Below are positions 13,290 to 47,751 of a stretch of DNA of 64,000 bases, piece after piece. The position numbers and the translations under genes were made by a program. Below the pieces are notes generated by a model. That model was given only the letters and a program-made list of their open reading frames with translations, did not search any database and was not told the DNA's origin. Origin of the DNA: an uncultured Thermodesulfatator sp. (GTDB taxonomy: Bacteria; Desulfobacterota; Thermodesulfobacteria; Thermodesulfobacteriales; Thermodesulfobacteriaceae); NCBI GenBank assembly GCA_964464535.1, contig CAYXGJ010000002.1, forward strand, positions 77,989-141,988, written 5' to 3'. How positions within the stretch are numbered: the stretch's first letter is position 1; the number at the start of each line of letters is the position of its first letter.

Positions 13290-13722
13290 AGTCTCTTCCT
13301 CTTCTTAAAAGAACTAAATCATCCATCTCTTTATAAAATCTTTTAATGTTTTCCAAATCCCATATTTGTTTGACCTTATTTTTTGAGATTTCCATTAATT
13401 TTCGCTCTTTATAGGCTTTTTCTAAAAGCTTAAGAAGAGTTTTTAATTCTTCATTTTGCATATCAATTTTTTTATTTAATAAAATTTCAAATTCTTTGTT
13501 TTTTTCTATCTGAAATAACCTATATTTGAATTCTTCAGCACTAAAAATACATCCTTTTTCTAAGGAATCGTAATAACTCTTTCTAAGAGAAATAATTGTT
13601 TCTTTTTCTTGTAATAATTTTTCAAGGTTTATTCTACAGTTTATAACTCTTATTTTAGTTTGTTCTTCTTGAAGGCTTTTATACCAAGTCAAGAGTTTTA
13701 AAATCTCTAATTTTTTTCTCAT
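13282..13722 (-). CDS. fliJ: Flagellar export protein FliJ
   Basis: 146-aa coiled coil right after fliI; KERKLME and EMDDL near the C-terminus. Confidence 0.75.
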   Translation of the reverse strand: MRKKLEILKLLTWYKSLQEEQTKIRVINCRINLEKLLQEKETIISLRKSYYDSLEKGCIFSAEEFKYRLFQIEKNKEFEILLNKKIDMQNEELKTLLKLLEKAYKERKLMEISKNKVKQIWDLENIKRFYKEMDDLVLLRRGRDYV

Positions 13723-15035: not shown

Positions 15036-15729
15036 CTTTTAAAAGGCTATCTAGAAGTTTTTTCCATCTTTTTTCAAAGGTTGCATCAATGACCCCTAAG
15101 GAGGTTTCAATAAATACTCCCCCCTTAGAAATGGATTCATCAGGAATTAATTTAATTTTTTGAGAAGGAGGTATATACTTTGATAGATTTTCTTCTAAAA
15201 ATTTATATTCTTCAGGATTTACTTTAATATTTAATTCTGTTCCCTCAGCAATATAATTTAAAGCTTCTTTTATTATTCTTAGTGGAATTTCAGGGTCTGC
15301 CTTGATTTCTTTTAAGGTTAATTTATTTGCTATATCTAAAGCTAAGTTTAAGATTTCTTTATCCATATTTATAATTGATTCTTGAATTTCCTTTTCTGTA
15401 TTTTTAAAAAAGGTTTCTATTATTTTAATTTTTTCTTGAAATTCTGTTTCTAATTTTGTTGCCAAGTTTTTATATTTTTCTTCTGCCTCCTTTTCCCCCT
15501 TTTCAAAACCTTCTTTATGTCCTTTTTTATATCCCTCAAGATAACCCCTGTTAAAGCCTTCTTTATAACCTTTTTCAAACCCCTCTTCTTTAATTTTATT
15601 TTTTTCTTTAGGATTAACTTTTAAGTTTACTTCAAAGATAGATTGGAAGGTTTCATTTTCTGTAGGTATTAAATCAGGTTTAATAATAGAAACTTCAGGC
15701 TTTTTTTTGGTTTTTAAAATTTTAGACAA
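15025..15729 (-). CDS. fliH: Flagellar assembly protein FliH
   Basis: GxxxG repeats (EGFEKGYKEGFNRGYLEGYKKGHKEGFEKG), DESISKGGVFIETSLGVIDA; between fliG and fliI. Confidence 0.92.
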   Translation of the reverse strand: MSKILKTKKKPEVSIIKPDLIPTENETFQSIFEVNLKVNPKEKNKIKEEGFEKGYKEGFNRGYLEGYKKGHKEGFEKGEKEAEEKYKNLATKLETEFQEKIKIIETFFKNTEKEIQESIINMDKEILNLALDIANKLTLKEIKADPEIPLRIIKEALNYIAEGTELNIKVNPEEYKFLEENLSKYIPPSQKIKLIPDESISKGGVFIETSLGVIDATFEKRWKKLLDSLLKDEG

Positions 15730-16732
15730 ATTCTTCTTCTCCTCTAGTGAGAACTATTTTCCCTTCTTGTTCTAATTTTTTAGCAGTTTTTATAATATTT
15801 TGCTGAGCTTTTTCAACTTCTGTAATTCTAACTGGGGGCATTAATTCCAATTCTTCTTTAAGTAAGTCAGCAGCACGTTTACTCATATTTCTGAAGAATT
15901 TTTCCTTTACTTCAGGGGAGGCACCTTTTAGAGCTAATTTCAAATCATCGGTTGAGATTTCTCTAAGAAGATTCTGTATTGCAAAATCATCAACCTTAAG
16001 AAAGTCTTCAAAAGTGAAGAGATGTTTTCTTATTTCTTCAGCTAAAGCAGGATTTTCGTCCTCAATTTCAGTTAAAAGTTCATCTTCCAAAGTTCTTCCT
16101 GCATGTGCTAAAATTTCTGCAGCTTTTTCAGGTCCTCCAATTTTTCTACCTAAGGCTCCTCCTACACTTTGCAATTCAGCTTCTAAGGAATCGCTTATTT
16201 CTTTTACAATTTCAGGGTCAACCTTATCTAATAAAGCAATTCTCAACAGAACTTCTCCTCTTATTCTTTCCGGAAGAAGTTGTAAAACCTGTCCAGATAA
16301 ATAGGGATCAAGGTGAACTAAAATAATAGCTATGGTTTGAGGATGCTCATTAGCAAGGAAACTTGCAATAGTTTTAGGATCAAGTTTTCTCAATTTTTTA
16401 AAAATTTCAGGCCCGATTTCTTTTTTAATTTCTTCATAGAGTTCTTTACCTTTTTCTCCATAAGCTTTTAATAAACTTTGTTTCAAAAAATCTTCTGGAG
16501 AGACATTAATATTTCCTAAAATCTCTTTTACTTCCATATTAGCTTCCTCTAAAATTTTTCTGACTGCTTCAGCAGGTATATATTCAATCTTAGCCATTTC
16601 AATTCCTATTCTTTTAATATCTTCTTCATCTAAATACTTGTATACCTCAGAAGTAAATTCTTCACCCATTAACATAAGGAAAATAGCTGCTTTTTGTGGT
16701 CCGGTTAATTTATTGGGGTCTATTTTAGCCAT
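15722..16732 (-). CDS. fliG: Flagellar motor switch protein FliG
   Basis: GPQKAAIFL, EHPQTIA, GG linker, LFTFED, ALKGA, NMSKRAA. Confidence 0.97.
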   Translation of the reverse strand: MAKIDPNKLTGPQKAAIFLMLMGEEFTSEVYKYLDEEDIKRIGIEMAKIEYIPAEAVRKILEEANMEVKEILGNINVSPEDFLKQSLLKAYGEKGKELYEEIKKEIGPEIFKKLRKLDPKTIASFLANEHPQTIAIILVHLDPYLSGQVLQLLPERIRGEVLLRIALLDKVDPEIVKEISDSLEAELQSVGGALGRKIGGPEKAAEILAHAGRTLEDELLTEIEDENPALAEEIRKHLFTFEDFLKVDDFAIQNLLREISTDDLKLALKGASPEVKEKFFRNMSKRAADLLKEELELMPPVRITEVEKAQQNIIKTAKKLEQEGKIVLTRGEEEFV

Positions 16733-16734
16733 TT

Positions 16735-18279
16735 TTAATATCCAGCCTCAGATAGAGCTTTTTTCCTTTCTTCTAATGTTTCTTCTAAAAGCCACTTTTT
16801 AATAAGCATAGCAGCTCTTTCTGGCTGACTCTTTATAATTCCCAAGGCAATTTCTTGAGGTAAGGGACCTAGTTCTTCTTCCTCAGGAGGAGTGGGTATA
16901 CCAGGGCGGGTAGGTGGTGCTTCTACAGGAATAGGCTTTGGTGTAAGGGCTTTAATAAGGGGTCTTATAACAAAAAGAAAGATAAGAATTAAAGCACCAA
17001 TTAATAAAAGAGGTTTATAAAATTGGGATACATAATCCATTATACCAGGTTTTGGCATAGGAATTTTTACAAATTCTTCAGCTTGTATTTTTACCTCATC
17101 TCCTCTATCAGGATTGTATCCTATAGCACCTTTTACCAATTCTTCAATCCAAGTAAGCTTAGCAGTAGAATTTTCTCCCAAAGCATTTTTGTCTACCAAA
17201 ACTGCTACACTTATTTTTTTAATACTTCCAGGAGAAATTTCAAGGTTTCTAAGTTTCTTACTAACTTCATAATTTTTGAGACTTCTTTTTTTAAAATAGG
17301 TTTCTCCTTGAATTTGAGGAGAAGTTGCTTCCATTTTTTTAAGAAGAGTTCCTTTTACACCAGCTTCTCCACCCTCATCAGGGATTTTGCTTGTTTTTTG
17401 TTCTTCTTCTGTTTCTTCAGAGACAACCGCTGTTCCTTCAGGGTCATAGATTTCTTCTGTAATACTTTCTTTATCAAAGGAAAGATCCACCCACACTTGA
17501 GCTATGGCTTTTCCATAACCTAAAGCTCCTGAAAGTATTTCTTCTATTTTGTCTCTTAATTGCTTTTCTACTTTTTCTTTATAGGCAAATTTGGTAACTG
17601 GTACCTCTTCTTCCTCTAAAGGGGTATAGAGGCTTTTCCCAGTATTGGCATCTACAACAGTTACATTTTTAGGATCAAGTTTTGGGACAGCTCCACTTAC
17701 TAAATTAACAATACCCTTTATTTGAGAAGGAGTTAATTGATAACCTGGGGTTAGCTCTATTAATACTGAAGCTTTAGGAGGTTTTTCTTCCTCTATAAAC
17801 ACAGTTTCTTTAGGTAAAGCAAGATGAACTCTTGCAGATTTTATTCCTCTTATTCCCATAATAGTTCTTGCAAGTTCCCCTTCAAGAGCCCTCTGATAGG
17901 TTATCTTTTCTTGAAACTCTGTAAGCCCCATTTTTTCCTTATCAAAAAGTTCAAATCCAGGACCACCTCCTCCAATAAATCCTTTACTTGCTATTTCCAT
18001 TCTCATTTCAGGAACCTTATCCTTAGGTACATAAATACTTCCGTCCAATTCTACTTTATAAGGAATTTTTTGTTCTTTAAGATACTGCACAATCTGACCG
18101 GTTGTCTGTTCGTCAAGACCTCTATAAAGAAGTCCCCAATTAGCCTTATTATATAACCAGATACTTAATATTAAAAGCAAGGTAATTCCTATAGATCCAC
18201 CAATAAAAAGTCTTCTTTGTTTTCTATCTAGTCTTTTCCAAAAATCTATCAGTTGATAGAGTATTTTTCTTAAATCCAT
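16735..18279 (-). CDS. fliF: Flagellar MS-ring protein FliF
   Basis: Two TMs; GFELFD, YQRALEGELARTI, ARVHLALP, NYEVS, GYNPDRGD. Confidence 0.96.
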   Translation of the reverse strand: MDLRKILYQLIDFWKRLDRKQRRLFIGGSIGITLLLILSIWLYNKANWGLLYRGLDEQTTGQIVQYLKEQKIPYKVELDGSIYVPKDKVPEMRMEIASKGFIGGGGPGFELFDKEKMGLTEFQEKITYQRALEGELARTIMGIRGIKSARVHLALPKETVFIEEEKPPKASVLIELTPGYQLTPSQIKGIVNLVSGAVPKLDPKNVTVVDANTGKSLYTPLEEEEVPVTKFAYKEKVEKQLRDKIEEILSGALGYGKAIAQVWVDLSFDKESITEEIYDPEGTAVVSEETEEEQKTSKIPDEGGEAGVKGTLLKKMEATSPQIQGETYFKKRSLKNYEVSKKLRNLEISPGSIKKISVAVLVDKNALGENSTAKLTWIEELVKGAIGYNPDRGDEVKIQAEEFVKIPMPKPGIMDYVSQFYKPLLLIGALILIFLFVIRPLIKALTPKPIPVEAPPTRPGIPTPPEEEELGPLPQEIALGIIKSQPERAAMLIKKWLLEETLEERKKALSEAGY

Positions 18280-18312
18280 ATAATTCTCCTATTAAAATTA
18301 CTTTTAAAATTT

Positions 18313-18606
18313 TTAGATTTGCATCCTCATAATTTCTTGATAAGCTTCTAAAATTTTATTTCTTATTCTCAAAAGAAGTTTAAAATTCAAATCAGCCTTA
18401 GATATAGCAAGTGCAACTTCTGAAAAATCTATATCTTCACCTTTAGCTAAAGCTTCTAACATTTTTTGAGCTTCCTTTTGAGAATTGTCTACCTCTTTTA
18501 TTTTTTCAAGAAAAAAATTTTTAAAATCTAACTTATTTTCCAGAGGTTTATTTTGAGGTTGTTGTAAATTTTTAATTTGAACATTTGTATTAAAATTAAT
18601 TTTCAT
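18313..18606 (-). CDS. fliE: Flagellar hook-basal body protein FliE
   Basis: IRNKILEAYQEIMRMQI C-terminus. Confidence 0.95.
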   Translation of the reverse strand: MKINFNTNVQIKNLQQPQNKPLENKLDFKNFFLEKIKEVDNSQKEAQKMLEALAKGEDIDFSEVALAISKADLNFKLLLRIRNKILEAYQEIMRMQI

Positions 18607-18621
18607 TTTAAGCCTCCATTT

Positions 18622-19032
18622 TTATCTTAATAAATCTAAGGTTCTTAGAATCATACTTTTTGTAGTAGAAAGAATAGTTAAATTTGCTTCATAAGCTCTT
18701 CCCGCAGATAAAAGCTCAACCATTTCGGTAATTACATCCACATTAGGATACTTTACAATTCCTCTTTCATCAGCATCTGGATGGCCAGGATCATAGACTT
18801 CTTTAAAAGGAGAAGGATCATCAACTATTTTTTCTACTTTTACAGCTTTAAGTTCAGGATTTTTTTCTGAAACAGGGACAGCTTTTAAAACTATAACCTT
18901 GGCTTTATATGGTCCTCCTTCTAGAGTTCTTGTTACTTGAGAATTTGCAATATTTGTTGCAGCAATATTTAATCTTATTCTTTGAGCTAAAAGGCCACTG
19001 CCTACTATTTGTGATAATTTAAGTAAATTCAT
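18622..19032 (-). CDS. flgC: Flagellar basal-body rod protein FlgC
   Basis: NIANSQVTRT, YDPGHPDAD, PNVDVITEMV, RAYEAN. Confidence 0.96.
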   Translation of the reverse strand: MNLLKLSQIVGSGLLAQRIRLNIAATNIANSQVTRTLEGGPYKAKVIVLKAVPVSEKNPELKAVKVEKIVDDPSPFKEVYDPGHPDADERGIVKYPNVDVITEMVELLSAGRAYEANLTILSTTKSMILRTLDLLR

Positions 19033-19034
19033 AT

Positions 19035-19430
19035 TTATCTACCTCCTTCAGTTATTGCTTCTCTTAATCTTTCTAATTCCTTTGAAAGAGCTTGTAATGT
19101 TGCTTCATATAACATTTGATTTTCTGTAAGCTGAACTAATTCTTCCTCAAGATTGACATTATTTGGAGTTCCCAAAGTTTCTTCTTCATAAGCTTTTATA
19201 AATTCATTTATACTTCTTAAAGATCCTCTAAAATGCTTAGGATGTGTGGTTTTGAGTCGATTTTTTTCGGAAAGATAACTCTGAATAATTTTTTCAAAAG
19301 GAATGTCTTTTCTTCTATATCCAGGGGTATCAACATTTGCTATATTTGAAGCAAGAAGAGAGTGTTTATAAGATCTAAGTTTTAAAGCAGTTTTTACAAG
19401 ATTAAAAGTTTTTTCAAAAACTCCTAACAT
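19035..19430 (-). CDS. flgB: Flagellar basal-body rod protein FlgB
   Basis: ASNIANVDTPGY, NNVNLEEE, NQMLY. Confidence 0.95.
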   Translation of the reverse strand: MLGVFEKTFNLVKTALKLRSYKHSLLASNIANVDTPGYRRKDIPFEKIIQSYLSEKNRLKTTHPKHFRGSLRSINEFIKAYEEETLGTPNNVNLEEELVQLTENQMLYEATLQALSKELERLREAITEGGR

Positions 19431-19441
19431 ATTTTATCTCC

Positions 19442-20767
19442 TTATAATAAACCTTCTTTTTCATATTGTTTGAGCTTGTTTCTCAAAGTTCTAACAGTAA
19501 TTCCTAAAAGTTCTGCAGCTTTGGTTCTATTTCCCTTACACATTTCTAAAGCCTTTAAAATAGCTTCCCTCTCAAGTTCTGAAAGAGGTTTTACTTCTAT
19601 AAAATTTTTTGCAAAATCTGTGCCTGTATAAGAAGAGGTTGAACTTTGAGAAAAAGGATCTGTAAGATTTTCCAGATCTATTAATTTTTCCTCACAGGTG
19701 AGAACAGCTCGTTCAATCATATTCTTTAGTTCTCTTACATTTCCCGGAAAAGGATAATTTTTTAAAAAAGAAAGAGCCTTTTCTGTGAAGCCCTTTATGT
19801 TTTTATGATAAAAAGTGGAAAAATTTTCCAGGAAGTAAAAAGCTAAAAGTTCTATATCCTCTTTTCTTTCTCTTAATGACGGAATTTTGACAGTAATAAC
19901 ATTTATTCTATAAAAGAGATCATTTCTAAAATGTCCTTCAGCAACTTCCTTTTCAATATCTTTGTTTGTGGTTGAGATAAGTCTTATATCTACTTTTATA
20001 GGTTGGTAACCACCTAAACGGTCTACTTCTTCTTCTTGAAGAACTCTTAAAAGTTTACTTTGAAGATGGGGGTGCATTTCTGTAATTTCATCTAATAAAA
20101 GAGTTCCTTTATCAGCTAATTCTATTTTTCCTTTTTTTCTAAAATTAGCTCCAGAAAAGGCACCCTTTTCATAGCCAAAAAGTTCAGATTCTAAAAGAGA
20201 TTCTGGTAAGGCTGCACAATTTATAGCAATAAAAGGACCAAATCTTCTAGGACTTTTTTGGTGAATATATTTGGAAAGAAGTTCCTTTCCTGTTCCTGTT
20301 TCCCCAATCAAAAGAATAGGAGCTTTGCTTTGAGCAACTTCCTCTAATTTTTTAAGAATTTTAAGCATATATGGATTTTTAGTAATGAAAGCCTCATTTT
20401 GCCAGAAAATCTTTTTTTCTTCTAAGGCATAAAGAATGGTTTTTTCCATAACTTCAAAAGGAGTTGAAAGAAGTTTAAAATCATAGGCTCCTCTTTTAAT
20501 GAATTCAATAGCATCTTCTAATTCTGCCCTTTCAGCTAAAAAAACAATAGATTTTAATCCTAACTTAAAAAAACTATCAACTAATGAAGGATTTTTGGTT
20601 TCTTCATAAGAGAGTTCATAAACCATTATATCTATAGATGAGGGAACCTTTTGAAAATCAAATTCAGACTTTTTAAAAAATAAAACCTCAAGACCCCTTT
20701 CTGAAAGAGAGTCTCTGAGGAGTTTTGCTTCTAAACTATCTCCAGTTAAACATATCCTTCCCTTCAT
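19442..20767 (-). CDS. Sigma-54-dependent Fis-family activator with an atypical receiver domain (FleR/FlrC position)
   Basis: GETGTGKE, GAFSGA, LLLDEI, FPGNVRELKN, C-terminal HTH; degenerate REC N-terminus. Confidence 0.88.
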   Translation of the reverse strand: MKGRICLTGDSLEAKLLRDSLSERGLEVLFFKKSEFDFQKVPSSIDIMVYELSYEETKNPSLVDSFFKLGLKSIVFLAERAELEDAIEFIKRGAYDFKLLSTPFEVMEKTILYALEEKKIFWQNEAFITKNPYMLKILKKLEEVAQSKAPILLIGETGTGKELLSKYIHQKSPRRFGPFIAINCAALPESLLESELFGYEKGAFSGANFRKKGKIELADKGTLLLDEITEMHPHLQSKLLRVLQEEEVDRLGGYQPIKVDIRLISTTNKDIEKEVAEGHFRNDLFYRINVITVKIPSLRERKEDIELLAFYFLENFSTFYHKNIKGFTEKALSFLKNYPFPGNVRELKNMIERAVLTCEEKLIDLENLTDPFSQSSTSSYTGTDFAKNFIEVKPLSELEREAILKALEMCKGNRTKAAELLGITVRTLRNKLKQYEKEGLL

Positions 20768-23700: not shown

Positions 23701-25542
23701 TTATTTATTTTTTATATATTTATGAGCATATTTTCTTACATAATGTCCTTCAAGAACATGAAATATACGTATTTTTTCAAGAAAGTTTTTGGAAAATGAG
23801 CCAATAGGTAGAAAAATTACTTTTTTACCTTGAAGGGAAGCAAATTTTTTTGCAAGATTAGTGGGGGGTTTTTTGGCTACATAAATTATATATTTTTCTA
23901 AGCTATAATCTATTCCGGCTAAGAGAAGTCTTTCAGCTTTATTTATTGCTATATCAAAATAAGGATCTTCCCATATATCATAGACTCTCATAGGAGGATA
24001 AGTAAGCATGAAACCTCCATATTTAGCTTTAGCAATACCAGGACCTACTACAGTTTCTTTTGGATCAGTGGAATAAAAAGCCATGTCTGATTCTTGATGA
24101 TGTTCTCCATGCCAGGTAAAATTCCAAGGATACCTTTCCTTTCCTGTTAATGGATCAGGATCTTCTTCGAAAATTATTACTATTGAACCTGCCTTTGCAT
24201 GAGCTTGGGGTTCTTCTTTAACATAAGGAGTTTCTTCAAAAAACCATTTTCTTATTGTTTCCTTTAAATCTAAACCATCTTTTAATGAAACTGTAAAAGG
24301 TTCAATTTTTCTTAAATTTTCTGTAATAACTTTAAGTCCTTTCTCCATCACCTTTTTTCCAAAAGTTTCAACTACTACATCCTCTGGAGGAAAAGAGCAA
24401 ATAACCTTTCCGGTGAAATCTTTCTTAAAAATTTTCCTTTCTTCTCTTGTAGTAAATCCTTGCAAGAAATTTAAGCTACTTCTTATGCTTTTTATTTTCC
24501 TTGAAATTCTTAGTCTTTTAGAAGGAAGTCTTAAATCTTCGGGAGAAAGATTTATAATAGGGAAGGGAGAAAGCTCTTCTTTTTGAAATTCATAGAAAGT
24601 TGCAATCTCCCAAAACCAGAAGGCAAATTCATCTCCTCCTATTCCTCTTACTGCTAAAATTAATGTATAAAGGTCAGGAATATATTGTCCTTTTATTAAA
24701 AGAAGATTCCTTAAAAATTGTCCAAAAACTTGAAGATCCTTGGGAGAAAGCTTTGTTCCTGTTTCTTTATAATACTTTTGTCTTGCCTTTTCAAAGACTT
24801 CTTCAAATAAAGTAATTCTATCAAGGGTAAATTTTTTATTTTCTATTAATTTTTTTCTATTTTTTTCATAAACACATTGAAAATACCCGGGCTCAGAAAG
24901 AATTTCTCTTAAACTTTTAGAATTTAAAGTATAAATTTCTATTTCTTTAGGTATATTTTTAGGAAGATATAGTAAACCCGAAGCTGTTTTAAGAGCACTT
25001 ATTACTCCCTTTACTTGATAAAAGGGCAAAATAATAGCGATAGAATTATATTTTTGAGAAATTTCAAGGATTTTTTCTGCGATGTATTTTTCTCTTTCTG
25101 TTAGATATTCTTCAAAAAAGGAAAGAGTTAAATTTACATATTTGATAAATTCTAATTCCTTAATAAGATAAGTAGGTAGAGGAGTAAAATTAGATAAGTC
25201 TTCTTGTGGTGCTTCCTTTGGAAGATCTATAAAAAAAATAGGGATACTTGAAAAAATAGCATATCTTGTTGCTTCAACTAAAGGGCATAAAGGTTCTACA
25301 ATTAGATATTCAGTTTCTTGTGTTTTATAAATGAGAGAAAGAACAGAAATGGTAGGAAGACTTTTTACAGCAAGCAACCATTTATCTTTTATAAAAAAAG
25401 GAAGGGCAATTGCTATAGCAGAAGGTTTAATTTCAGCTAAAAGTTTTATAATACTTTGAGTAATTTCAAGATTACTGGAAAAGAAAGGTAGGAAATATAA
25501 AATTGAAGTTTTATCCTTAAATTTTTTTTCAATTTTAAACAT
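23701..25542 (-). CDS. Conserved hypothetical 613-aa protein, partner of the adjacent MoxR AAA+ ATPase
   Basis: Long intact ORF 7 bp downstream of the ATPase; information-rich C-terminal half (ICSFPPED, DGLDLKETIRKW, TWHGEHHQESDMAFYST, PPMRVYDIWEDP). Confidence 0.8.
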   Translation of the reverse strand: MFKIEKKFKDKTSILYFLPFFSSNLEITQSIIKLLAEIKPSAIAIALPFFIKDKWLLAVKSLPTISVLSLIYKTQETEYLIVEPLCPLVEATRYAIFSSIPIFFIDLPKEAPQEDLSNFTPLPTYLIKELEFIKYVNLTLSFFEEYLTEREKYIAEKILEISQKYNSIAIILPFYQVKGVISALKTASGLLYLPKNIPKEIEIYTLNSKSLREILSEPGYFQCVYEKNRKKLIENKKFTLDRITLFEEVFEKARQKYYKETGTKLSPKDLQVFGQFLRNLLLIKGQYIPDLYTLILAVRGIGGDEFAFWFWEIATFYEFQKEELSPFPIINLSPEDLRLPSKRLRISRKIKSIRSSLNFLQGFTTREERKIFKKDFTGKVICSFPPEDVVVETFGKKVMEKGLKVITENLRKIEPFTVSLKDGLDLKETIRKWFFEETPYVKEEPQAHAKAGSIVIIFEEDPDPLTGKERYPWNFTWHGEHHQESDMAFYSTDPKETVVGPGIAKAKYGGFMLTYPPMRVYDIWEDPYFDIAINKAERLLLAGIDYSLEKYIIYVAKKPPTNLAKKFASLQGKKVIFLPIGSFSKNFLEKIRIFHVLEGHYVRKYAHKYIKNK

Positions 25543-25549
25543 GTTTGAA

Positions 25550-26437
25550 TTAATCTAAAGGACGTAATAAAGGTTTAGTTGATTTCTTATTTTCCAAAAG
25601 TTCTTTCAAATATATTAATGCTTGAGGACCGAGTATTACTGAAATAGCCTCTTTAAGAAGTGGTAAAAGATTTGTTAAATCCTTAGAGGATTTATTTGAG
25701 AATTTAATTTTTTTAAGGACATAACGCCCTATATTTACTCCATCTCTTACACTATAAAGTTCTCCATATTCGTGAGCCATTTGTAAAAACCTAACTATAT
25801 AGTCAAGAAGTCCTTCATCAGCCCAAGGCAAATTAGTTTTTAAAATAGCCTTTTCTTCTTCATAAGAAGGAAAATCTATAAAAATTTGAGGTTGCAATCT
25901 TGAATGGATATATTCAGGCAATTCAAAGGTTGAAGCATCTTCATTCATAGTTACGCAAAGTCTAAAATCTAGGTGAGCTTTTATTTTTATTCCTGCTATA
26001 ATAGATTCTACGTACCTTCTGGCATCAAGAAGAGGTGCAAGAGAAGCCCAGGATTTTTCACTCATTCGATTAGCCTCATCAATAATAGCTACTCCACCTT
26101 TTATCATAGCAGTAACTATAGGGCTTGCTACATACCTTATTTTTTTATCTTCTGAAATAACAGGAGTTATAATAAGATCTTCTGGTCTTGTATCAACAGT
26201 TGCCTGGAAAATATAAACTTCTTTATTTAGCCTTTTTGCAGCTGCATAGGCAAGGGTTGTTTTCCCAACCCCAGGTTTTCCAATAAGACGAGGGGTTAGA
26301 GGAAGGTCTTTTTCATCTAAAATAAGCCAGCAAGCAAGTATTTGTTCAATAATTTCATTCCTTGGATAAAGAGGAATATTTAATTCATCAGGGTGAGAAA
26401 GGTATATGGTTACACCGTCAATTACAACGCTTTCCAT
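25550..26437 (-). CDS. MoxR/CbbQ-type AAA+ ATPase (AAA_5)
   Basis: Walker A GKPGVGKT, TRPEDLI, Walker B IIDEANRM, FRLCVTMN, sensor/arginine finger YIHSRL. Confidence 0.88.
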   Translation of the reverse strand: MESVVIDGVTIYLSHPDELNIPLYPRNEIIEQILACWLILDEKDLPLTPRLIGKPGVGKTTLAYAAAKRLNKEVYIFQATVDTRPEDLIITPVISEDKKIRYVASPIVTAMIKGGVAIIDEANRMSEKSWASLAPLLDARRYVESIIAGIKIKAHLDFRLCVTMNEDASTFELPEYIHSRLQPQIFIDFPSYEEEKAILKTNLPWADEGLLDYIVRFLQMAHEYGELYSVRDGVNIGRYVLKKIKFSNKSSKDLTNLLPLLKEAISVILGPQALIYLKELLENKKSTKPLLRPLD

Positions 26438-33276: not shown

Positions 33277-34467
33277 TTATCTCATAGGAAAAAGTTTTGT
33301 ACCAGGTAAACTTTCTATGGGTTCAGTTAAAAACATTTCTCCTTTTTTTATCCAGTTTTTAAGTATTTCTGCAATTTTTCTTGCTTTAAAGAAACTAGAT
33401 ATAGGATAAGTTGGTACTTCTTTACCCAAGATATTTATTTTTCCATTTTTTAATTCTGCATAACTTACAATTCCATAATTTCTTTTTATTCCGTTAGGAT
33501 AATCGTAGGAATAATCTACTACCTGAGTAAAAAGATCTTCATCAGAAAGTCCCGCCCATTCAGCAACTTGTTCATTTAAAATAGGTATAGGGATTCCTAA
33601 TCCCACAGCTAAGGAACATCCATAACCTATATGGCTTGTTCCAACAAGCCATTCAGGGGTCATCTCTTTCAAATTACCTATAACCATAAGGGTTGCTGCT
33701 GGTTGAATGGGTACTCCCTTAGGAGTTCTTTTTACTTCCATATTATGTTGAGTTCCACACCAGATCACATATCCTTTTGCTCCTCCAAGAAAAATTCTTG
33801 TTCCTATACCTATAGTTTTTAAATAGGGATCCTTAAGTAATGGTGAAAGAGCCCCTGCAGTAGCGTAATTGGCATTTCCAAGATTGGGTTTTAAAACTCC
33901 CATATAGGTATATAAAATCTTATCTGATAGGTTTATTGCACAATTATAATTTTGATAAGCATTTCTTGGATTACATAATACTGCATTCTTTAAATCATGA
34001 ATAGTTATTTCTGCTTCATAAGTCCTTCTTGGATAACAGTGGGTTCCATATCCCAGAGCTCTTAAATATATTTTTTTCCCAGCTACTAAATCATGAATTA
34101 CATGGCCACCACCGTAAAGAAATTGTCCAGGAAAAACTTTATTAAGAGGATCATCTTCTCTTGTCTCAGTTGCACCTATATAAAAATCGACCGCAGCAAG
34201 TCCTCCATAAGCTGGAACATCATTTAACCACACTCTATAAGCTTTAATAGTAGGAATAGTATGTCCAAAATTAATGAAAGCACCTGAAGAACACATGGGA
34301 GAAAATGTTCCAGTGGTAACTACATCAACTTCTTTAGCTGCTTGAACTGGTCCCACTTCTTTTACAAGTTTAGAAAATTCTTCCGCAGTTAATACTACTA
34401 CTTCACCTTTTTCAATTTTTTTATTTATTTCTTCTATGGTTCTTTTTACCTTAAATTCATTGTTCAT
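33277..34467 (-). CDS. DUF39 homocysteine biosynthesis protein (aspartate-semialdehyde sulfurtransferase, MA1821/MJ0100-like), without CBS domains
   Basis: TIEEINKKI...DVVTTGTFSPMCSSGA, YGGGHVI, NPRNAYQNY, PLLKDP, YGCSLAVGLGIPIP. Confidence 0.85.
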   Translation of the reverse strand: MNNEFKVKRTIEEINKKIEKGEVVVLTAEEFSKLVKEVGPVQAAKEVDVVTTGTFSPMCSSGAFINFGHTIPTIKAYRVWLNDVPAYGGLAAVDFYIGATETREDDPLNKVFPGQFLYGGGHVIHDLVAGKKIYLRALGYGTHCYPRRTYEAEITIHDLKNAVLCNPRNAYQNYNCAINLSDKILYTYMGVLKPNLGNANYATAGALSPLLKDPYLKTIGIGTRIFLGGAKGYVIWCGTQHNMEVKRTPKGVPIQPAATLMVIGNLKEMTPEWLVGTSHIGYGCSLAVGLGIPIPILNEQVAEWAGLSDEDLFTQVVDYSYDYPNGIKRNYGIVSYAELKNGKINILGKEVPTYPISSFFKARKIAEILKNWIKKGEMFLTEPIESLPGTKLFPMR

Positions 34468-34478
34468 TTTAAAATCTC

Positions 34479-35075
34479 CTATTCAACTAAAGATATAACT
34501 TTATGTCCGGAAGTTTCCAAATCTGAAGCTATTTTATCAAGAGCTATTTTTTCAAGTCTTATAAAATATACTTTTTCTCCGTTTAAATTAACATCCATTC
34601 CAATAGAAATTATTTTTCCTCCACCCTTTCTTATTATTTCAAGGACTTCATCTAAGTTATCTTTTTTAGGAATGACATCTAAACGAGAGGAAGACTTAAG
34701 AAGCCCCATCAATTCAATAAAAGCCTCTAAAATGTCAGTAATAGTAATAATTCCTACTAATTTACCCTCTGTAATTACTGGAAGACCACCTATTTTATAT
34801 TTATATATAATTCTTGCTGCTTCATCAATTGAAGTTTCAGGATCTACAGTAATAGGATTTAAAATCATAACCTCCTTTAAAGGAAGTTGCAATTTTTCAG
34901 AGGAAAGATAAGCTCTTAAATTGCTTTCAGTTACAAGTCCTACTAATTTTCCATTTTCTATAACAATAGGAATATGCCTAATAGAAAATCGTCTCATTAG
35001 TTGTATTGCCTCTTCTACAGTATCTTCTGGGGAGGCTATAATTACTTCTGTAATCATCCAGTTCTTAACCTTCAT
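34479..35075 (-). CDS. CBS-pair + ACT-like domain protein (AcuB-like architecture)
   Basis: Two CBS motifs (IRHIPIV...LVGLVTE; IGGLPVI...LVGIITITD) plus a C-terminal ACT-like segment. Confidence 0.85.
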   Translation of the reverse strand: MKVKNWMITEVIIASPEDTVEEAIQLMRRFSIRHIPIVIENGKLVGLVTESNLRAYLSSEKLQLPLKEVMILNPITVDPETSIDEAARIIYKYKIGGLPVITEGKLVGIITITDILEAFIELMGLLKSSSRLDVIPKKDNLDEVLEIIRKGGGKIISIGMDVNLNGEKVYFIRLEKIALDKIASDLETSGHKVISLVE

Positions 35076-35107
35076 AAGGCTAATCTCCCTTTTTGTTTTT
35101 TTTGAAA

Positions 35108-35135
35108 ACTATACCACAAAAATTAAAAAATACAA
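35108..35135 (-). promoter_or_regulatory. Sigma70-type promoter for the CBS-DUF39-secG-dxr operon
   Basis: Minus strand: TTGTAT 35135-35130, 16 nt, TGG-TATAGT (extended -10) 35113-35108; SD AGGGAG before ATG 35075. Confidence 0.55.
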
Positions 35136-35144
35136 AAAAATAAA

Positions 35145-38100
35145 TTACTTAATGTTTAGGTAATCTTTCAAGATTTCTGAAGTAATAGTATTAGCTTTTA
35201 AAAATTCTTCAATAGGTCCTTCAAAGATAAGGTAACCTCCTTTTTCTCCTCCTTCAGGACCAAGTTCAATTACCCAATCTGCCCATTTAATAAGTTCAAG
35301 ATTATGTTCTATTACAATAACAGTATGTCCTTTATCAATAAGTCCTTGCAATACATTTACTAACTTTTCCACATCATTTATATGAAGTCCTGTAGTGGGT
35401 TCGTCTAAAATAAAAAGAGAGCCTCCTTTTGAGGATTTGACAAATTCCTTAGTAAGTTTTATTCTTTGAGCCTCTCCTCCAGAAAGAGAAGGACTTGGTT
35501 GACCAAGATTCAAATAATCAAGACCAATGTTGCAAAGAGTATTTAATTTTTGATAAATAGAGGAGAAGTGTTTGAAAAATTCTTTTGCTTCAGAAAAATC
35601 CATATTCAAAACTTCAGAAATATTTTTTCCTTTGAAATAGACTTCAAGGGTTTCTGGATTATATCTTTTACCTCCGCAATATTCACATACCTGATATACT
35701 TCTGGTAAAAATTTAATTTCCACTTTAAGATAACCTTGTCCTTTGCAATAAGGACATTGCCCTTCTTCAGTATTAAAAGAAAATCTGCCTTCCTTATAAC
35801 CTCTTTGTCTTGCTAAAGGAGTATTTGCAAAAACTTCTCTAATATTAGTAAAAACATTTATATAAGTTGCTGGAGTAGATCTTGGTGTATTTCCAATCGG
35901 AGAATGATCAACTAAGTAAACTCTCTTTATATTTTCAAATCCTCTTACATTTTTAACTCCCCATAAATCTAATTTTGACTTAGTTTTTATACTCAAAAGC
36001 TTTTTTAAATTTTCATAAAGAAGTTCACATATTAAAGTTGATTTTCCAGAACCAGAAACTCCTACTACTACTGTAAGTGAATTTAAGGGAATAGATACAT
36101 TTATATTTTTAAGATTTCTTAAATAAGCTCCCTCTAAAAGAATAAATTTAGAAGGTTTTCTTTTAAGACTCTTTAATTTCTTTCTGTTTATATCTTTAAG
36201 AGCTTTTGCAGTTTCCGAAATTTCATTTTTAAGAAGTTGAGAAGGAGTTCCTACAAATATAACTTCTCCTCCCTTTTTTCCTCCTCCTGGACCAAGATCT
36301 ACAATATAATCAGCAGAAAGAATAGTTTCTTCATCATGCTCAACTACAATTATAGTATTTCCCTTATTTTTTAAAGATTTTAAAACTTTTATCAACTTAG
36401 CATTATCCTTAGGATGAAGTCCAATTGTTGGTTCATCAAGAATATAAGCAACCCCTGTGAGATTGCTTCCAATTTCAGCGGATATTCTTACTCTTTTAGC
36501 TTCTCCAGAAGATAGAGTATCTGCTGATCTTCCAAGGGTTAAATATCCTACACCAAGCTCAATTAAATATTTGAGTCTTGATATTATTTCAGAAATAAGT
36601 CCTTCAGCTAAAATTTTTTCTTTACCTTCAAGCTTAAGGTTTTTTAAAAATTCTATTGCCTTTTCAATACTAAGTTCACAAAATTCAGGAAGGGAAAGAC
36701 CGTTTATTTTATAATAAAAAACTTCCTCTTTATACCTACTTCCTTTACATAAAGGACAGACCTTATCTTCTATTTTCCCAAGACCTTGACAGTGAGAACA
36801 AGCACCGATTCTTGAATTAAAAGCAAAAAGCAAGGGATCAGGTTCAGGAAGGCTAACTCCACATTTTACACAGGCTCTCTTTTGGCTAAAAAGAAATTCC
36901 TTAGAATTTACCAGAAGTAAAGCTTCTCCCTTACCCTCCTTTAAAGTTTTTAAAAATAGCTCTTCAAAATTTTTAAATTTTTTAAAATTAGTCTTACCTA
37001 TTAAAGCTTCAATGGTATGCTCTTTATATCTTGATAAAGAAGGTATAGGTGGGAGTTTATAGAAAATTGAATCAATTCTTACTTCGTAATATCCGGAGTT
37101 TAAAAGCTTTTCAAAAAGATTCCTGTAAATTCCTTTGCGGTGTTTTACTATGGGTGCAAGAAAGGAAACTTCAGCATTTTCAAGTTTTTCTTCCTTAAAA
37201 AGTTTTTTAGCAAATTCAAGAAGTTCCTTTTCTGAACGAGGTATTAATGGGAAATTACATTTTGGACAATAGGTTTTACTTATCTTTGAATAAAGAAGTC
37301 TTAAATAAGGAAGTATTTCTGTAAGGGTACCAACTGTAGAACGAGGAGATAATTCTCCTGATTTTTGTTCTAAAGCCACTGTAGGTGGAATACCAGAAAT
37401 AAGGTCATAATCTATTTCTTCATAAAGTTTTAAAAATTGTCTTAAATAGGCAGGTAAAGTTTCTAAAAATCTTCTTTGTCCCTCAGTGAAAATAACATCA
37501 AAAGCAAGAGTTGATTTTCCAGAGCCAGAAACTCCTGTAATCACAATAAATTTTTCTCTTGGCAAATCTACATCTATATTTTTTAAGTTATGATGTCTTA
37601 TACCTCTAAGTTTTATGTAAGTATCTTCATAATGATATTTTTTTTCCTTTTCAGCTTTTTCTTTAAGTTTTAAACCTGTTAAATATTCTTTTAAATAATA
37701 AGCTGTTTTACTTTTTTGATCTTTTAAATTTAAAAAATCCTTTAAAGATCCTTCAAAGATAAGGTAACCTCCTTTTTCTCCTCCTTCAGGACCAAGTTCA
37801 ATTACCCAATCTGAGGAAAGTATTATTTCAGGATGATGCTCAACTACCACAATGGTATGTCCTTTTTCTTTAAGATATTTTAAAGAAGAAACAAGTTTTT
37901 CTATATCTTTTAAATGAAGTCCTACTGTTGGTTCGTCAAGGAGAATAAGCGCTTTTTCACTTTTTATTTGAGATAGAATTTCTGCAATTTTTAATCTTTG
38001 TGCTTCTCCTCCAGAAAGAGTCGAAAGGGGTTGTCCCAATTTTAAATAACCAAGACCAAGTTTTTGCAAGATATTTAAAGTTCCTTTTATAGGAGGATGA

Positions 38101-40409
38101 TTTTCAAAAAATTCAATAGCAGAATCTACTGTAAGTTCAAGTATTTCTGCAATATTTTTATCTTTCCATTTTATTTCAAGTACTTCTTCTTTATATCTTT
38201 TTCCTTTACATACCTCACAAGGAATGACAAGATCTGAAAGAAACTGCATTTCTATAACTTCAAAACCAAGACCTTTACATTCGGAACATTGTGAAATTTC
38301 AGAATTAAAAGAGAAAAAGGTTTCAGTATATCCGTATTTTTTAGCAAGAGGAGTGCTTGCAAGAAGTTTTCTAATATAGGGGAAAATTCCTATATAAGTA
38401 GCAACTATACTTCTTGGAGAACGTGCTAAAGGTTCTTGAGTAATAAAAAGAACTTGAGAAAAATGTTCATAACCTTCTATAGATTCACAAGAATCAAAAC
38501 TTAAATTTTGTTTGTAAGCAGTGATACCTTTGTAAATTATTTCTTCAAGAAGGGTTGATTTTCCAGAGCCAGAAGCTCCTACTATAGAGGTAATAGCACC
38601 AACAGGTAAAGAAAAAGTTATTTCTTTTAAATTATATTTTTTAGCCTTTATTATTTTTAATTTTTTGGGGTAAGAGTAAGAAGTATAATAAGAGACTTTT
38701 CTTTGAGAACTTAAGTATTTAAGTGCTAAAGCAGTAGGGGTATCTTTTTCAAATATCTTCTTTGGAGTTCCTGCATAAAGAAGATAACCCCCTTTTTCTC
38801 CTCCCTCAGGGCCAAGATCTATTAAAAAATCAGCTTGGGTAATAATTTCTGGATCATGTTCTACTATAACTACAGTATTATTTTGAGAAACCAAATTTTC
38901 CATAAATTTAAGTATCTTTTGAGTATCAGTAGGGTGAAGACCTGTTGTTGGTTCATCAATAAGATAAAGGGTTTCTACTAAATTAGAAGAAAGAGCTCTT
39001 GTTAAAAGGCATCTACTTGCTTCTCCTCCAGAAAGAGTTTTACTTGCTCTGTTTAAGGTGAGATAGGAAAGTCCAACCTCTTCTAAATAAAAAAGCCTTT
39101 TTAAAATCTCCTTTGCAAGTCTCTCTTCAGCTGGTAATCTATTTTTAGAAAGAAATTCCTTTATAAATTCCTTTGCTTGTAATATTTCTAAGTTGTAAAA
39201 ATCTCCTATATTTAAGTCTTGAATATAAAAAATAAGCGCTTGTGAATTGAAACGAGTTCCCTTACATATAGGACAGGTTATTTCTCTTCTCAGTTTTGAA
39301 AGAAGGATTCTTATATGAGGTTTATATTTTTTACTTTCAAGCCAATCTATAACTTCTTTAAGTCCATACCAATCTCCTTCTCCAAAAAAGATTTTCCTTT
39401 TTATTTCTGAAGAAAATCTTTCAAAAGGTAAGTTTAGATCTATTCCTTGTTTTTTTAAAAAATCTATAAGATCAAATTTTACTTCCAACATAAAAGGATA
39501 ATCAAGAAGAGGAATTGCTCCATCTTTTATCGATTTTTCAGGATGTTTTACCAAGGCTTTAAAATCTACTACTAAAAGATTTCCAAATCCTTTACATTCA
39601 GGACAAGCTCCTTGAGAAGTATTAAAAGAAAAAAGATTTGGAGTTTTTTGGGGAACTTTAAATCCACAGGTAGGACATACCAATTCGCGAGTATAAGTAA
39701 ATTCTTCGCCATATAATGTTTTCACTTTTATATGATCAGAAAATTTAAAAGCCAGCTCAATAGCTTGAGCGATCTCTGAAAGATCCTCTTCAGAAGGTTT
39801 AAGCCTATAAATAACCACTTCTATTTCATCAACATATGGAAATTTTTCTATTTCTTCAAGCTCACATATTTTACCATCCCAGAAAATTCTACTGAATCCT
39901 GCAGAAAGAAGTCCCTCTTTAAGATAATTGAAATCTGTTTTTATCTTTTGTGGAGAAAGTAAATAAATAGGTATGTTTTTAAAATTTTGGATAATTTCTT
40001 TAGCAATCAAATGAGGGTCTTTAATGTAGATATATTGATTACATCTTGGGCATTTTGGGATACTTGCTTTGTAATAAAGCATTTTAGTAAAATGGCTTAT
40101 TTCAGTAAGTGTTGCAACTGTTGAACGGGAAGTTTTAATATAATTTCCCTGAGGAAAAGCAAGAGCTGGAGGAATATTGTTTATGTCTTCTACTTTTGGT
40201 TTGGGGAGTTTTTCAAAATATTGTCTTACATATGAAGAAAAGGTTTCTAAATATCTTCTCTGTCCTTCAGCATAAAGGGTATCAAAGACTAAACTTGATT
40301 TACCAGCACCAGAAATTCCTGTAACTACAACAAGCTTATAAAAAGGTAATCTTAAATCAAAACCTTTAAGATTATTTTGGGAGACTTTAATAACTTCAAC
40401 AAATTTCAT
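35145..40409 (-). CDS. uvrA: Excinuclease ABC subunit A, double-length (two tandem UvrA modules)
   Basis: Four Walker A motifs (GISGAGKSS, GASGSGKST, GVSGSGKST twice), four LSxGE signatures, multiple CxxC fingers; the second module starts near 37620 (IKLRGIRHHNLKNID). Confidence 0.93.
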   Translation of the reverse strand: MKFVEVIKVSQNNLKGFDLRLPFYKLVVVTGISGAGKSSLVFDTLYAEGQRRYLETFSSYVRQYFEKLPKPKVEDINNIPPALAFPQGNYIKTSRSTVATLTEISHFTKMLYYKASIPKCPRCNQYIYIKDPHLIAKEIIQNFKNIPIYLLSPQKIKTDFNYLKEGLLSAGFSRIFWDGKICELEEIEKFPYVDEIEVVIYRLKPSEEDLSEIAQAIELAFKFSDHIKVKTLYGEEFTYTRELVCPTCGFKVPQKTPNLFSFNTSQGACPECKGFGNLLVVDFKALVKHPEKSIKDGAIPLLDYPFMLEVKFDLIDFLKKQGIDLNLPFERFSSEIKRKIFFGEGDWYGLKEVIDWLESKKYKPHIRILLSKLRREITCPICKGTRFNSQALIFYIQDLNIGDFYNLEILQAKEFIKEFLSKNRLPAEERLAKEILKRLFYLEEVGLSYLTLNRASKTLSGGEASRCLLTRALSSNLVETLYLIDEPTTGLHPTDTQKILKFMENLVSQNNTVVIVEHDPEIITQADFLIDLGPEGGEKGGYLLYAGTPKKIFEKDTPTALALKYLSSQRKVSYYTSYSYPKKLKIIKAKKYNLKEITFSLPVGAITSIVGASGSGKSTLLEEIIYKGITAYKQNLSFDSCESIEGYEHFSQVLFITQEPLARSPRSIVATYIGIFPYIRKLLASTPLAKKYGYTETFFSFNSEISQCSECKGLGFEVIEMQFLSDLVIPCEVCKGKRYKEEVLEIKWKDKNIAEILELTVDSAIEFFENHPPIKGTLNILQKLGLGYLKLGQPLSTLSGGEAQRLKIAEILSQIKSEKALILLDEPTVGLHLKDIEKLVSSLKYLKEKGHTIVVVEHHPEIILSSDWVIELGPEGGEKGGYLIFEGSLKDFLNLKDQKSKTAYYLKEYLTGLKLKEKAEKEKKYHYEDTYIKLRGIRHHNLKNIDVDLPREKFIVITGVSGSGKSTLAFDVIFTEGQRRFLETLPAYLRQFLKLYEEIDYDLISGIPPTVALEQKSGELSPRSTVGTLTEILPYLRLLYSKISKTYCPKCNFPLIPRSEKELLEFAKKLFKEEKLENAEVSFLAPIVKHRKGIYRNLFEKLLNSGYYEVRIDSIFYKLPPIPSLSRYKEHTIEALIGKTNFKKFKNFEELFLKTLKEGKGEALLLVNSKEFLFSQKRACVKCGVSLPEPDPLLFAFNSRIGACSHCQGLGKIEDKVCPLCKGSRYKEEVFYYKINGLSLPEFCELSIEKAIEFLKNLKLEGKEKILAEGLISEIISRLKYLIELGVGYLTLGRSADTLSSGEAKRVRISAEIGSNLTGVAYILDEPTIGLHPKDNAKLIKVLKSLKNKGNTIIVVEHDEETILSADYIVDLGPGGGKKGGEVIFVGTPSQLLKNEISETAKALKDINRKKLKSLKRKPSKFILLEGAYLRNLKNINVSIPLNSLTVVVGVSGSGKSTLICELLYENLKKLLSIKTKSKLDLWGVKNVRGFENIKRVYLVDHSPIGNTPRSTPATYINVFTNIREVFANTPLARQRGYKEGRFSFNTEEGQCPYCKGQGYLKVEIKFLPEVYQVCEYCGGKRYNPETLEVYFKGKNISEVLNMDFSEAKEFFKHFSSIYQKLNTLCNIGLDYLNLGQPSPSLSGGEAQRIKLTKEFVKSSKGGSLFILDEPTTGLHINDVEKLVNVLQGLIDKGHTVIVIEHNLELIKWADWVIELGPEGGEKGGYLIFEGPIEEFLKANTITSEILKDYLNIK
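35217..35281. repeat. 65-bp perfect direct repeat, copy at end of UvrA module 2
   Basis: TCCTTCAAAGATAAGGTAACCTCCTTTTTCTCCTCCTTCAGGACCAAGTTCAATTACCCAATCTG, identical to 37749-37813. Confidence 0.95.
37749..37813. repeat. 65-bp perfect direct repeat, copy at end of UvrA module 1
   Basis: Identical to 35217-35281; both encode DWVIELGPEGGEKGGYLIFEG; offset 2532 bp (844 codons). Confidence 0.95.
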
Positions 40410-47264: not shown

Positions 47265-47717
47265 TTAAATTTCAAACACTGCTTTTACCTTAAATTTTTT
47301 AATAGCTGGAAAGAGTTTTATTTTTATTTCAAATCTTTCTTCTAAATTTTTACAAAAATCTTTTAAATCCTTTTCTGATTTTGTAACCACTGTAAACCAG
47401 AAATTAAGTTTATGTTCTCTTAGATAAGCATGGGTTATTTCAGGAAGTTTTGCTATTTCATAAACTATTTTTATTTTATCTTCAGGTATAACTGTTGCAC
47501 ATAAACAAGTGAAATATCCCAGTTTATAAGAATTAACAGTTGCTCCAAAATGTCTTATTATTCTCTTTTTTTTTAAATTTTTTAAAAAATCTATAATTTC
47601 CCTTTCTTCAAGAGCAAATTTTTCAGCTAAAATTTTGAATGGTTCTGGAACTAAAGGAAAATCTTTTTGTAAAAAATTGAGAAGCTCCTTTAATTTTTTT
47701 TCTTTAAGATTATCCAT
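47265..47717 (-). CDS. ahbA: Siroheme decarboxylase alpha subunit (AhbA/NirDL-like, Lrp/AsnC fold)
   Basis: LQKDFPLVPEPF, IIRHFGA, HAYLREH, NFWFTV. ATG 47717 preferred over the track's TTG 47723. Confidence 0.75.
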   Translation of the reverse strand: MDNLKEKKLKELLNFLQKDFPLVPEPFKILAEKFALEEREIIDFLKNLKKKRIIRHFGATVNSYKLGYFTCLCATVIPEDKIKIVYEIAKLPEITHAYLREHKLNFWFTVVTKSEKDLKDFCKNLEERFEIKIKLFPAIKKFKVKAVFEI

Positions 47718-47751
47718 GTTCAAAAATTACCAGTAAGATTCAATTTTGCAA
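47718..47751 (-). promoter_or_regulatory. Sigma70-type promoter TTGCAA-16-TAATTT (extended -10) ending 6 nt before ATG (probably leaderless)
   Basis: Minus strand: TTGCAA 47751-47746, TGG-TAATTT 47729-47724, TTGAAC, ATG 47717; no SD. Confidence 0.5.

Follow-up and report, generated by a model that had tools for sequence, protein, structure and literature searches.

An AcuB-like CBS-ACT gene recurrently precedes the DUF39 gene for L-aspartate semialdehyde sulfurtransferase in Thermodesulfatator and its relatives and may encode a regulatory subunit acting in trans

Homocysteine formation from aspartate semialdehyde and sulfide has been shown only for a few proteins of the DUF39 family (HcyBio, COG1900): the archaeal pair MA1821/MA1822 and the Desulfovibrio proteins Dde_3007 and DvMF_1464. 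MA1821 is the catalytic subunit of L-aspartate semialdehyde sulfurtransferase (hereafter L-ASST), and subgroup COG1900a has two conserved cysteines, the essential Cys54 and Cys131 of MA1821; the archaeal enzyme also carries regulatory CBS and NIL modules in cis (PMC12068725). CBS-less bacterial DUF39 proteins are known as well, and homocysteine synthesis in Desulfovibrio genetically requires DUF39 (PMC4045070, PMC5764234); Kuehl et al. (2014) noted the absence of CBS domains in Desulfovibrio DUF39 and speculated that feedback by S-adenosylmethionine (SAM) is lacking. Here we describe a DUF39 gene of this kind in a 64,000-nucleotide stretch ("the window") of contig CAYXGJ010000002.1 from an uncultured Thermodesulfatator sp. 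Its open reading frame (33277-34467, minus strand, 396 aa) is directly preceded by one for a separate protein with a CBS pair and an ACT domain (34479-35075, minus strand, 198 aa). We found that the upstream protein belongs with the AcuB regulators and that the gene pair recurs across several bacterial clades, and we propose, tentatively, that the protein regulates L-ASST in trans.

The closest described counterparts of the upstream protein are AcuB of Bacillus and Geobacillus (PDB 9S4V-9S52, 9QS7) and TTHA0829 of Thermus thermophilus (5AWE), which share its full-length CBS-CBS-ACT architecture of ~200 aa and are likewise stand-alone regulators without a catalytic domain. In AcuB, the Bateman module binds AMP, ADP, ATP or diadenosine tetraphosphate (Ap4A), and AcuC, a deacetylase, is inhibited when the ACT domain docks on it, as established in two papers of 2026 (PMC13121692, PMC13039410). 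Arg33 and His34 bridge the nucleotide phosphates, and an R33E substitution abolishes Ap4A binding (PMC13039410; the role of R33/H34 is also described in PMC13121692). The second site uses a Thr-x-Thr-Asp motif, in which the threonines contact the beta-phosphate and the aspartate the ribose (PMC13121692). Control of a separate enzyme by a small protein that only binds a ligand is also reported for DarB, which acts on Rel by contact (PMC7900238); DarB is a c-di-AMP receptor without an ACT domain, and its likeness to the window protein lies in the CBS fold.

The 198-aa protein, which has no cysteines, resembles AcuB and TTHA0829 from end to end. Pfam detects its two CBS domains (CBS1, approximately aa 1-60; CBS2, approximately aa 61-124; both within 34479-35075) and gives no ACT match. 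In the AlphaFold2 model (pLDDT 90.7), however, residues 129-197 form the beta-alpha-beta-beta-alpha-beta order of an ACT domain, with strands at 129-135, 155-162, 168-175 and 192-197 and helices at 141-150 and 180-188 by DSSP. Together with the alignment to the corresponding domains of 5AWE and 9S4W, the model places this domain at aa 125-198 (34482-34703, minus strand). All of the best 19 PDB matches to the model in Foldseek are full-length AcuB or TTHA0829 chains, and phmmer aligns the whole sequence to TTHA0829 (5AWE, E 4e-25), Geobacillus AcuB (9S4W, E 2e-24) and TM0892 (1VR9). The description in an earlier note on this DNA, a stand-alone CBS-pair and ACT protein encoded 11 nucleotides (nt) upstream of DUF39, is thus borne out, and sequence and model comparison assign the protein along its whole length to the AcuB family.

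The residues that contact nucleotides in AcuB are largely retained. Ile32-Arg33-His34 (codons at 34974-34982, minus strand) aligns with the phosphate-bridging IRH motif of Geobacillus AcuB, is invariant in our alignments A2 and A3 and is at least 95% conserved over 90 members of the subfamily. Thr111-Ile112-Thr113-Asp114 (34734-34745, minus strand) corresponds to the second nucleotide site of AcuB and TTHA0829; Thr111 and Asp114 are at least 95% conserved among the same 90 proteins and identical in both reference proteins. This conservation points to a predicted adenine-nucleotide-binding protein. It differs from AcuB in its low identity (27-34%), in the site-I residue discussed below and in its genomic setting, beside DUF39/L-ASST instead of in acuABC. 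Annotation by eye recognized no acuA, acuC or acsA gene in the window. Many close homologues (P0003-P0120) are labelled "acetoin utilization protein AcuB" in IMG; with no acu operon context at the window locus, the label was probably inherited from the family as an over-annotation.

The downstream gene is predicted to encode the catalytic subunit of L-ASST (COG1900a). Its product matches the entire Pfam profile PF01837 (HcyBio, positions 1-349 of 349; 515 bits, E 1e-154), with no CBS or other Pfam domain beside it. The cysteine in PMCSSG noticed in the earlier note is Cys59 (codon 34291-34293, minus strand), which aligns with the essential Cys54 of MA1821, and Cys144 in GTHCYPR (34036-34038, minus strand) aligns with MA1821 Cys131; both are invariant in 116 of 116 aligned DUF39 relatives. 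The protein is not of the MMP16/ComF subtype (COG1900d), in which a ferredoxin domain is inserted: it scores 116 bits against TIGR03287, for which the cut-off is 364, and has neither a Fer4 match nor a CxxCxxCxxxC motif. Among 1.84 billion cluster representatives we found 930 DUF39 relatives, and the 150 best of these show three full-length architectures: the domain alone (~380-406 aa), with a CBS pair (P0122, 504 aa) and with a 2x[4Fe-4S] ferredoxin (~440 aa). The AlphaFold2 model of the window protein is confident (pLDDT 92.7, pTM 0.91) and has no PDB neighbour in Foldseek at E <= 0.001, nor does the sequence have a relative in the PDB; no experimental structure yet exists for the L-ASST/COG1900 fold.

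The archaeal enzyme works with the NIL-ferredoxin MA1822, and the earlier note had placed this partner outside the window. We agree: the window contains no CxxCxxCxxxC motif and no tblastn match to the NIL-ferredoxin of a relative. In a related Thermodesulfobacteriaceae metagenome-assembled genome (MAG; L004), a gene for an MA1822-type NIL-ferredoxin lies 4.4 kb downstream of DUF39 (10092-10535), after secG-dxr-rseP-tsaB, and at the matching place the window has a second permease gene. The ferredoxin gene directly follows DUF39 in two loci (L072, 1996-2400, labelled Ca. Solincola; L079, 3108-3524, labelled Clostridia), and a further MA1822-type gene is found in L034 (61-684). In the Thermodesulfatator genome, then, the partner would be encoded elsewhere, neither beside DUF39 nor in the window.

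The junction between the two genes has an operon-like arrangement. The intergenic gap is 11 nt (34468-34478), and the junction (34468-34481, minus strand) reads GAA TAG GAG ATT TTA AA ATG, so that the AGGAG Shine-Dalgarno sequence of DUF39 (34480-34476) overlaps the TAG stop of the CBS-ACT gene (34481-34479) and stands 8 nt from the DUF39 ATG at 34467. A scan for sigma-70 promoters and terminators showed no enrichment over shuffled sequence and nothing decisive; it gave no terminator-like site between the genes. The two are thus a tight co-directional pair, as the earlier note had stated, and are probably co-transcribed. They form part of a longer co-directional run: dnaJ, moaC, dksA, a UvrA-like gene of 1754 aa, CBS-ACT, DUF39, secG, dxr, rseP, tsaB and two permease genes. 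A candidate internal promoter may lie in the 69-nt spacer upstream of the CBS-ACT gene (35076-35144, minus strand), where an extended -10-like TGgTATAGT (35116-35108) precedes the AGGGAG Shine-Dalgarno sequence of the CBS-ACT gene (35090-35085); it falls below the sigma-70 threshold because its -35 element is weak. An Rfam scan of the window returned one tRNA only, and no SAM or other riboswitch was found near the pair.

To what extent the adjacency is conserved was assessed from both sides. For DUF39, we scanned one genome per GTDB species, confirmed 599 loci and kept the closest 80, of which 5 are Thermodesulfobacteriales and almost all others are other Desulfobacterota at 62-67% identity; the Ca. 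Solincola and Clostridia loci mentioned above are among the 80. In 14 of these 80 loci (L001-L005; L013, L017, L018, L019; L026, L029, L030, L039; L064), a CBS-ACT homologue immediately precedes DUF39 on the same strand, and none occurs elsewhere in ~1.1 Mb of DUF39 flanks. The paired loci come from Thermodesulfobacteriales, Desulfurivibrionaceae-like Desulfobulbia (L013, L017, L018 and L019 are labelled Desulfurivibrio, Hydrosulfovibrio or Desulfurivibrionaceae), a third deltaproteobacterial clade and a Desulfarculia MAG (L064). For CBS-ACT, metagenomes were scanned with alignment A2; 363 loci were confirmed, the best 80 kept, and the 75 with at least 400 bp downstream evaluated. DUF39 follows directly in 38 of the 75, at gaps of 14-128 nt.

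Together the two scans provide 52 pair loci within 160 related loci. Gaps in the pair loci have a median of ~17 nt and measure 9-13 nt in L001-L005, L018 and L039. The genes on either side change: at least 16 families occur next to CBS-ACT on the upstream side and at least 11 next to DUF39 on the downstream side, and the pair alone is constant. Because it recurs in many loci with differing flanks, the adjacency exceeds chance, and conserved order, strand and spacing under such turnover are the usual signature of a functional operon partnership. In crude neighbour-joining trees without support values, all DUF39-linked members of a set of 96 CBS-ACT proteins but L150 group in one clade, L064 from Desulfarculia is basal to the subfamily, proteins from other contexts form separate clades, and the Thermus and Geobacillus AcuB proteins are distant outgroups. 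In the DUF39 tree, the enzymes with a partner make up four clades, between which partner-less ones are interspersed, as would fit an old pairing with repeated losses. The simplest reading is that the pairing arose early within Desulfobacterota and was lost or separated several times. The conservation that the earlier note had put forward for checking therefore extends well beyond the genus and is partial.

Based on these observations, we consider it plausible, though short of probable, that the CBS-ACT protein is an adenine-nucleotide-sensing adaptor of the AcuB type that regulates L-ASST in trans, by analogy with the regulation of AcuC by AcuB. The two genes would form a module in which DUF39 supplies the catalytic subunit of L-ASST, and this enzyme, together with a NIL-ferredoxin encoded elsewhere, would convert aspartate semialdehyde and sulfide into homocysteine. 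The upstream product would be a dimeric CBS-CBS-ACT protein whose Bateman module binds AMP, ADP, ATP or Ap4A through Arg33-His34 and Thr111/Thr113/Asp114, with the ACT domain as the presumed docking or effector module. The ligand state would then set the docking of ACT on L-ASST and so tune, probably inhibit, homocysteine synthesis. The mechanism can be made this concrete because of the AcuB-AcuC precedent (PMC13039410, PMC13121692), which is also an experimental precedent for the earlier note's idea of a CBS-ACT protein acting in trans, though not as a detached archaeal module. The lineage of the window would thus have a regulatory subunit in trans where methanogens have a CBS pair in cis, recruited independently, and the bacterial regulator would probably read the energy or stress state rather than SAM. 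It would also set this lineage apart from Desulfovibrio (Dde_3007, DvMF_1464, DVU2938), a member of the same broad group of sulfate reducers with CBS-less DUF39, for which descriptions mention no CBS-ACT partner; the window lineage has a separate sensor gene ahead of DUF39.

Several observations weigh against this proposal. Neither gene requires the other as its neighbour: 66 of the 80 close DUF39 loci have no CBS-ACT gene within 8 kb, and 37 of the 75 evaluated CBS-ACT loci have no DUF39 nearby. Ten of the latter are followed by a gene for a LarE-like protein and then Mrp/ApbC, and 27 lie in other contexts, such as with TrmI-like and LpxL-like genes, with a MoaA-like gene upstream and an epimerase downstream, or with a class II aldolase upstream and a flavodoxin downstream. 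All pair loci that can be assigned to a taxon belong to one phylum, and shared ancestry therefore inflates the counts. We found no alignment column that tells DUF39-linked CBS-ACT proteins from the others, nor one that tells partner-bearing from partner-less DUF39 proteins, and the 150 best representatives include no AcuB-type module fused to DUF39. Dde_3007 and DvMF_1464 work although no CBS partner has been reported for them. Within the sensor itself, the ribose aspartate of AcuB site I is replaced by Asn52; other Thermodesulfobacteriales have Ser or Asn at this position, and Desulfobulbia have Asp. Finally, the recurring LarE-like neighbour is an alternative or additional candidate for the client.

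This neighbour is at the center of the alternative that fares best. The LarE-like protein is a sulfur transferase of the PP-loop type with the cysteine set CxxC...PCLATR; it scores 227-260 bits against TIGR00268, whose cut-off is 150. In 29 of 74 evaluable genome loci, which span several orders of Desulfobacterota (for example L005, 9179-9973, and L094, 6819-7670, besides 27 other genome loci), its gene comes directly after DUF39, and it follows DUF39 in 23 of the pair loci. We found no literature discussing a LarE-like gene beside DUF39. The protein may be an unrecognized member of the sulfide-to-homocysteine pathway, or it may be the real client of the sensor. It is conceivable, if rather unlikely, that the CBS-ACT protein is a generic sensor of adenine nucleotides or Ap4A whose client is the LarE-like protein or one encoded elsewhere, and that the adjacency is a partly retained ancestral Desulfobacterota order of CBS-ACT, DUF39 and LarE-like genes. 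In line with this, CBS-ACT is followed by the LarE-like gene without DUF39 in the ten loci above, MoaA-like and KdsA neighbours recur in loci with and without DUF39, DUF39 commonly lacks the partner, and there are no specificity-determining positions between the context groups. However, a merely inherited order does not readily account for a pair that persists while its flanks change among at least 16 and 11 families, or for its very tight spacing with a Shine-Dalgarno sequence overlapping the stop codon. Moreover, the gaps between CBS-ACT and LarE-like genes are longer and more variable (41-541 nt), and the pair is retained in the window and in L001-L004 despite the absence of a LarE-like gene; in the window we found only a weak PP-loop match to GuaA.

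The earlier note had proposed a different origin and ligand, namely a Rosetta-stone fission in which the CBS pair of MA1821/MJ0100 became a separate protein that still binds SAM or methylthioadenosine (MTA), with the ACT domain binding methionine or another amino acid, so that end-product feedback would operate in trans. The catalytic domains are indeed orthologous: the fused representative P0122 is 57% identical to the window protein over this domain, the window protein covers all of PF01837 and keeps both cysteines, and in alignment A1 its C terminus coincides with the start of the P0122 linker to the CBS pair, the exact domain boundary of the fused form. Both systems also link the enzyme to a regulatory element that contains CBS domains. 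Archaeal L-ASST is also thought to be regulated by SAM and methionine, and of the CBS proteins that score well against the window protein some, such as PH1780, bind SAM or MTA. The regulatory elements themselves do not match. Searched alone against the PDB, the window CBS pair scores 83.7 and 81.4 bits with AcuB-type proteins and 59 bits with MJ0100, which ranks approximately 14th, level with the CBS pairs of IMPDH; reciprocally, the fused pair of P0122 scores 120 bits with MJ0100 and 40-52 bits with AcuB-type proteins. The CBS-ACT gene lies upstream of DUF39 in 52 of 52 pair loci, whereas the CBS pair is C-terminal in the archaeal fusion. The protein aligns with AcuB throughout, and its ACT domain, which has no equivalent in the fusion, carries Asn140 in this lineage in place of the usual glycine of the beta1-alpha1 loop.

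We therefore rejected fission of an archaeal DUF39-CBS enzyme, which we regard as improbable, on the reversed gene order, the different CBS subfamily and the extra ACT domain; since the protein matches AcuB end to end and MJ0100 no more closely than IMPDH, it does not appear to be a fission product. The likeness to the archaeal arrangement is then one of analogy, by independent recruitment. Nor is SAM or MTA evident as the ligand. The position of Arg33-His34 is Asn-His in MJ0100 and Asp-His in P0122, which would fit a phosphate-free ligand (SAM or MTA) for those proteins and a phosphorylated adenine nucleotide for the window protein, where Thr-x-Thr-Asp is kept as well.

That the protein is simply AcuB, regulating an AcuC-type lysine deacetylase encoded elsewhere and thereby acetyl-CoA synthetase, with DUF39 beside it by coincidence, appears very improbable: AcuB provides its top sequence and structure matches, its R33/H34 signature and the names of its homologues, but the identity is low and the tree branch long, the canonical acuABC context is missing, and no histone deacetylase (HDAC) zinc motif stands beside CBS-ACT in 159 of the 160 loci. 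The single such motif (DxDxHHGDG) is at approximately position 9841 (minus strand) of L145, ~3 kb from and not adjacent to CBS-ACT; this locus is without DUF39, falls on a separate branch of the CBS-ACT tree and gives the only hint of an AcuC-type neighbour in the subfamily. The grouping with AcuB that the earlier note had named as an argument against its own proposal is therefore present at the level of the family, with no AcuC or AcuA gene nearby in the window or, apart from that motif, in the related loci.

Other features of the window are given here for completeness. The UvrA-like gene upstream of the pair (35145-40409, minus strand) encodes two complete UvrA units in tandem; residues 3-910 of the 1754 cover the whole UvrA model, the NCBIfam UvrA models reach ~1840 bits in all, and the long-UvrA model PRK00635 scores under its cut-off. 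The tandem gene keeps this position in close relatives (L001, L139, L140, L159, L161-L163). A flagellar run assigned by eye from the translations (13282-20767, minus strand) comprises FliJ, FliI, FliH, FliG, FliF, FliE, FlgC and FlgB, followed by a sigma-54-type response regulator. Two long open reading frames on the minus strand, of 613 aa (23701-25542) and 844 aa (8574-11108), match no NCBIfam model at E <= 1e-5, and the 613-aa frame adjoins a gene for a MoxR-like AAA ATPase (25550-26437). An AhbA-like subunit of siroheme decarboxylase (47265-47723, minus strand; 128 bits against a cut-off of 140) is encoded between mla genes and a fabZ-lpxA-lpxI-lpxB cluster. The window has a G+C content of ~30%. 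The CBS-ACT protein is 96% identical to its counterpart in Thermodesulfobacterium geofontis strain OPF15, to which the source of the window is closely related, and hot-spring metagenomes contain the same sequence; the organism is a hot-spring sulfate reducer.

CBS-less bacterial DUF39 proteins and the architecture and mechanism of AcuB are already known. What is added here is an AcuB-family adaptor with a probable new client, L-ASST, which would thereby gain a candidate regulatory subunit in trans; the literature we searched, which did not include Rauch et al. (2014), contains no report linking an AcuB-like protein to DUF39 or homocysteine. A broader and rather doubtful extension is that AcuB-type proteins are general, exchangeable sensors of nucleotides or alarmones that act in trans and whose ACT domain can be retargeted, with L-ASST, possibly together with the LarE-like protein, as the client in Thermodesulfobacteriota; energy charge or Ap4A, and not SAM as in methanogens, would then gate methionine and sulfur assimilation in these anaerobes. 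Should the link to DUF39 reflect inherited gene order only, the finding would shrink to a routine annotation note. AcuB was shown to be an AcuC-docking inhibitor controlled by adenine nucleotides and Ap4A only in 2026, while the regulation of L-ASST is largely unstudied and the bacterial DUF39 enzymes have been thought to be without the archaeal feedback module. A conserved operon that joins the gene of an AcuB-like protein to that of L-ASST would, if true, give the adaptor family a testable second client and the anaerobic homocysteine pathway a candidate for a regulatory subunit; it would also mean that the routine name "acetoin utilization protein AcuB" needs correcting in organisms with no acu operon near the gene.

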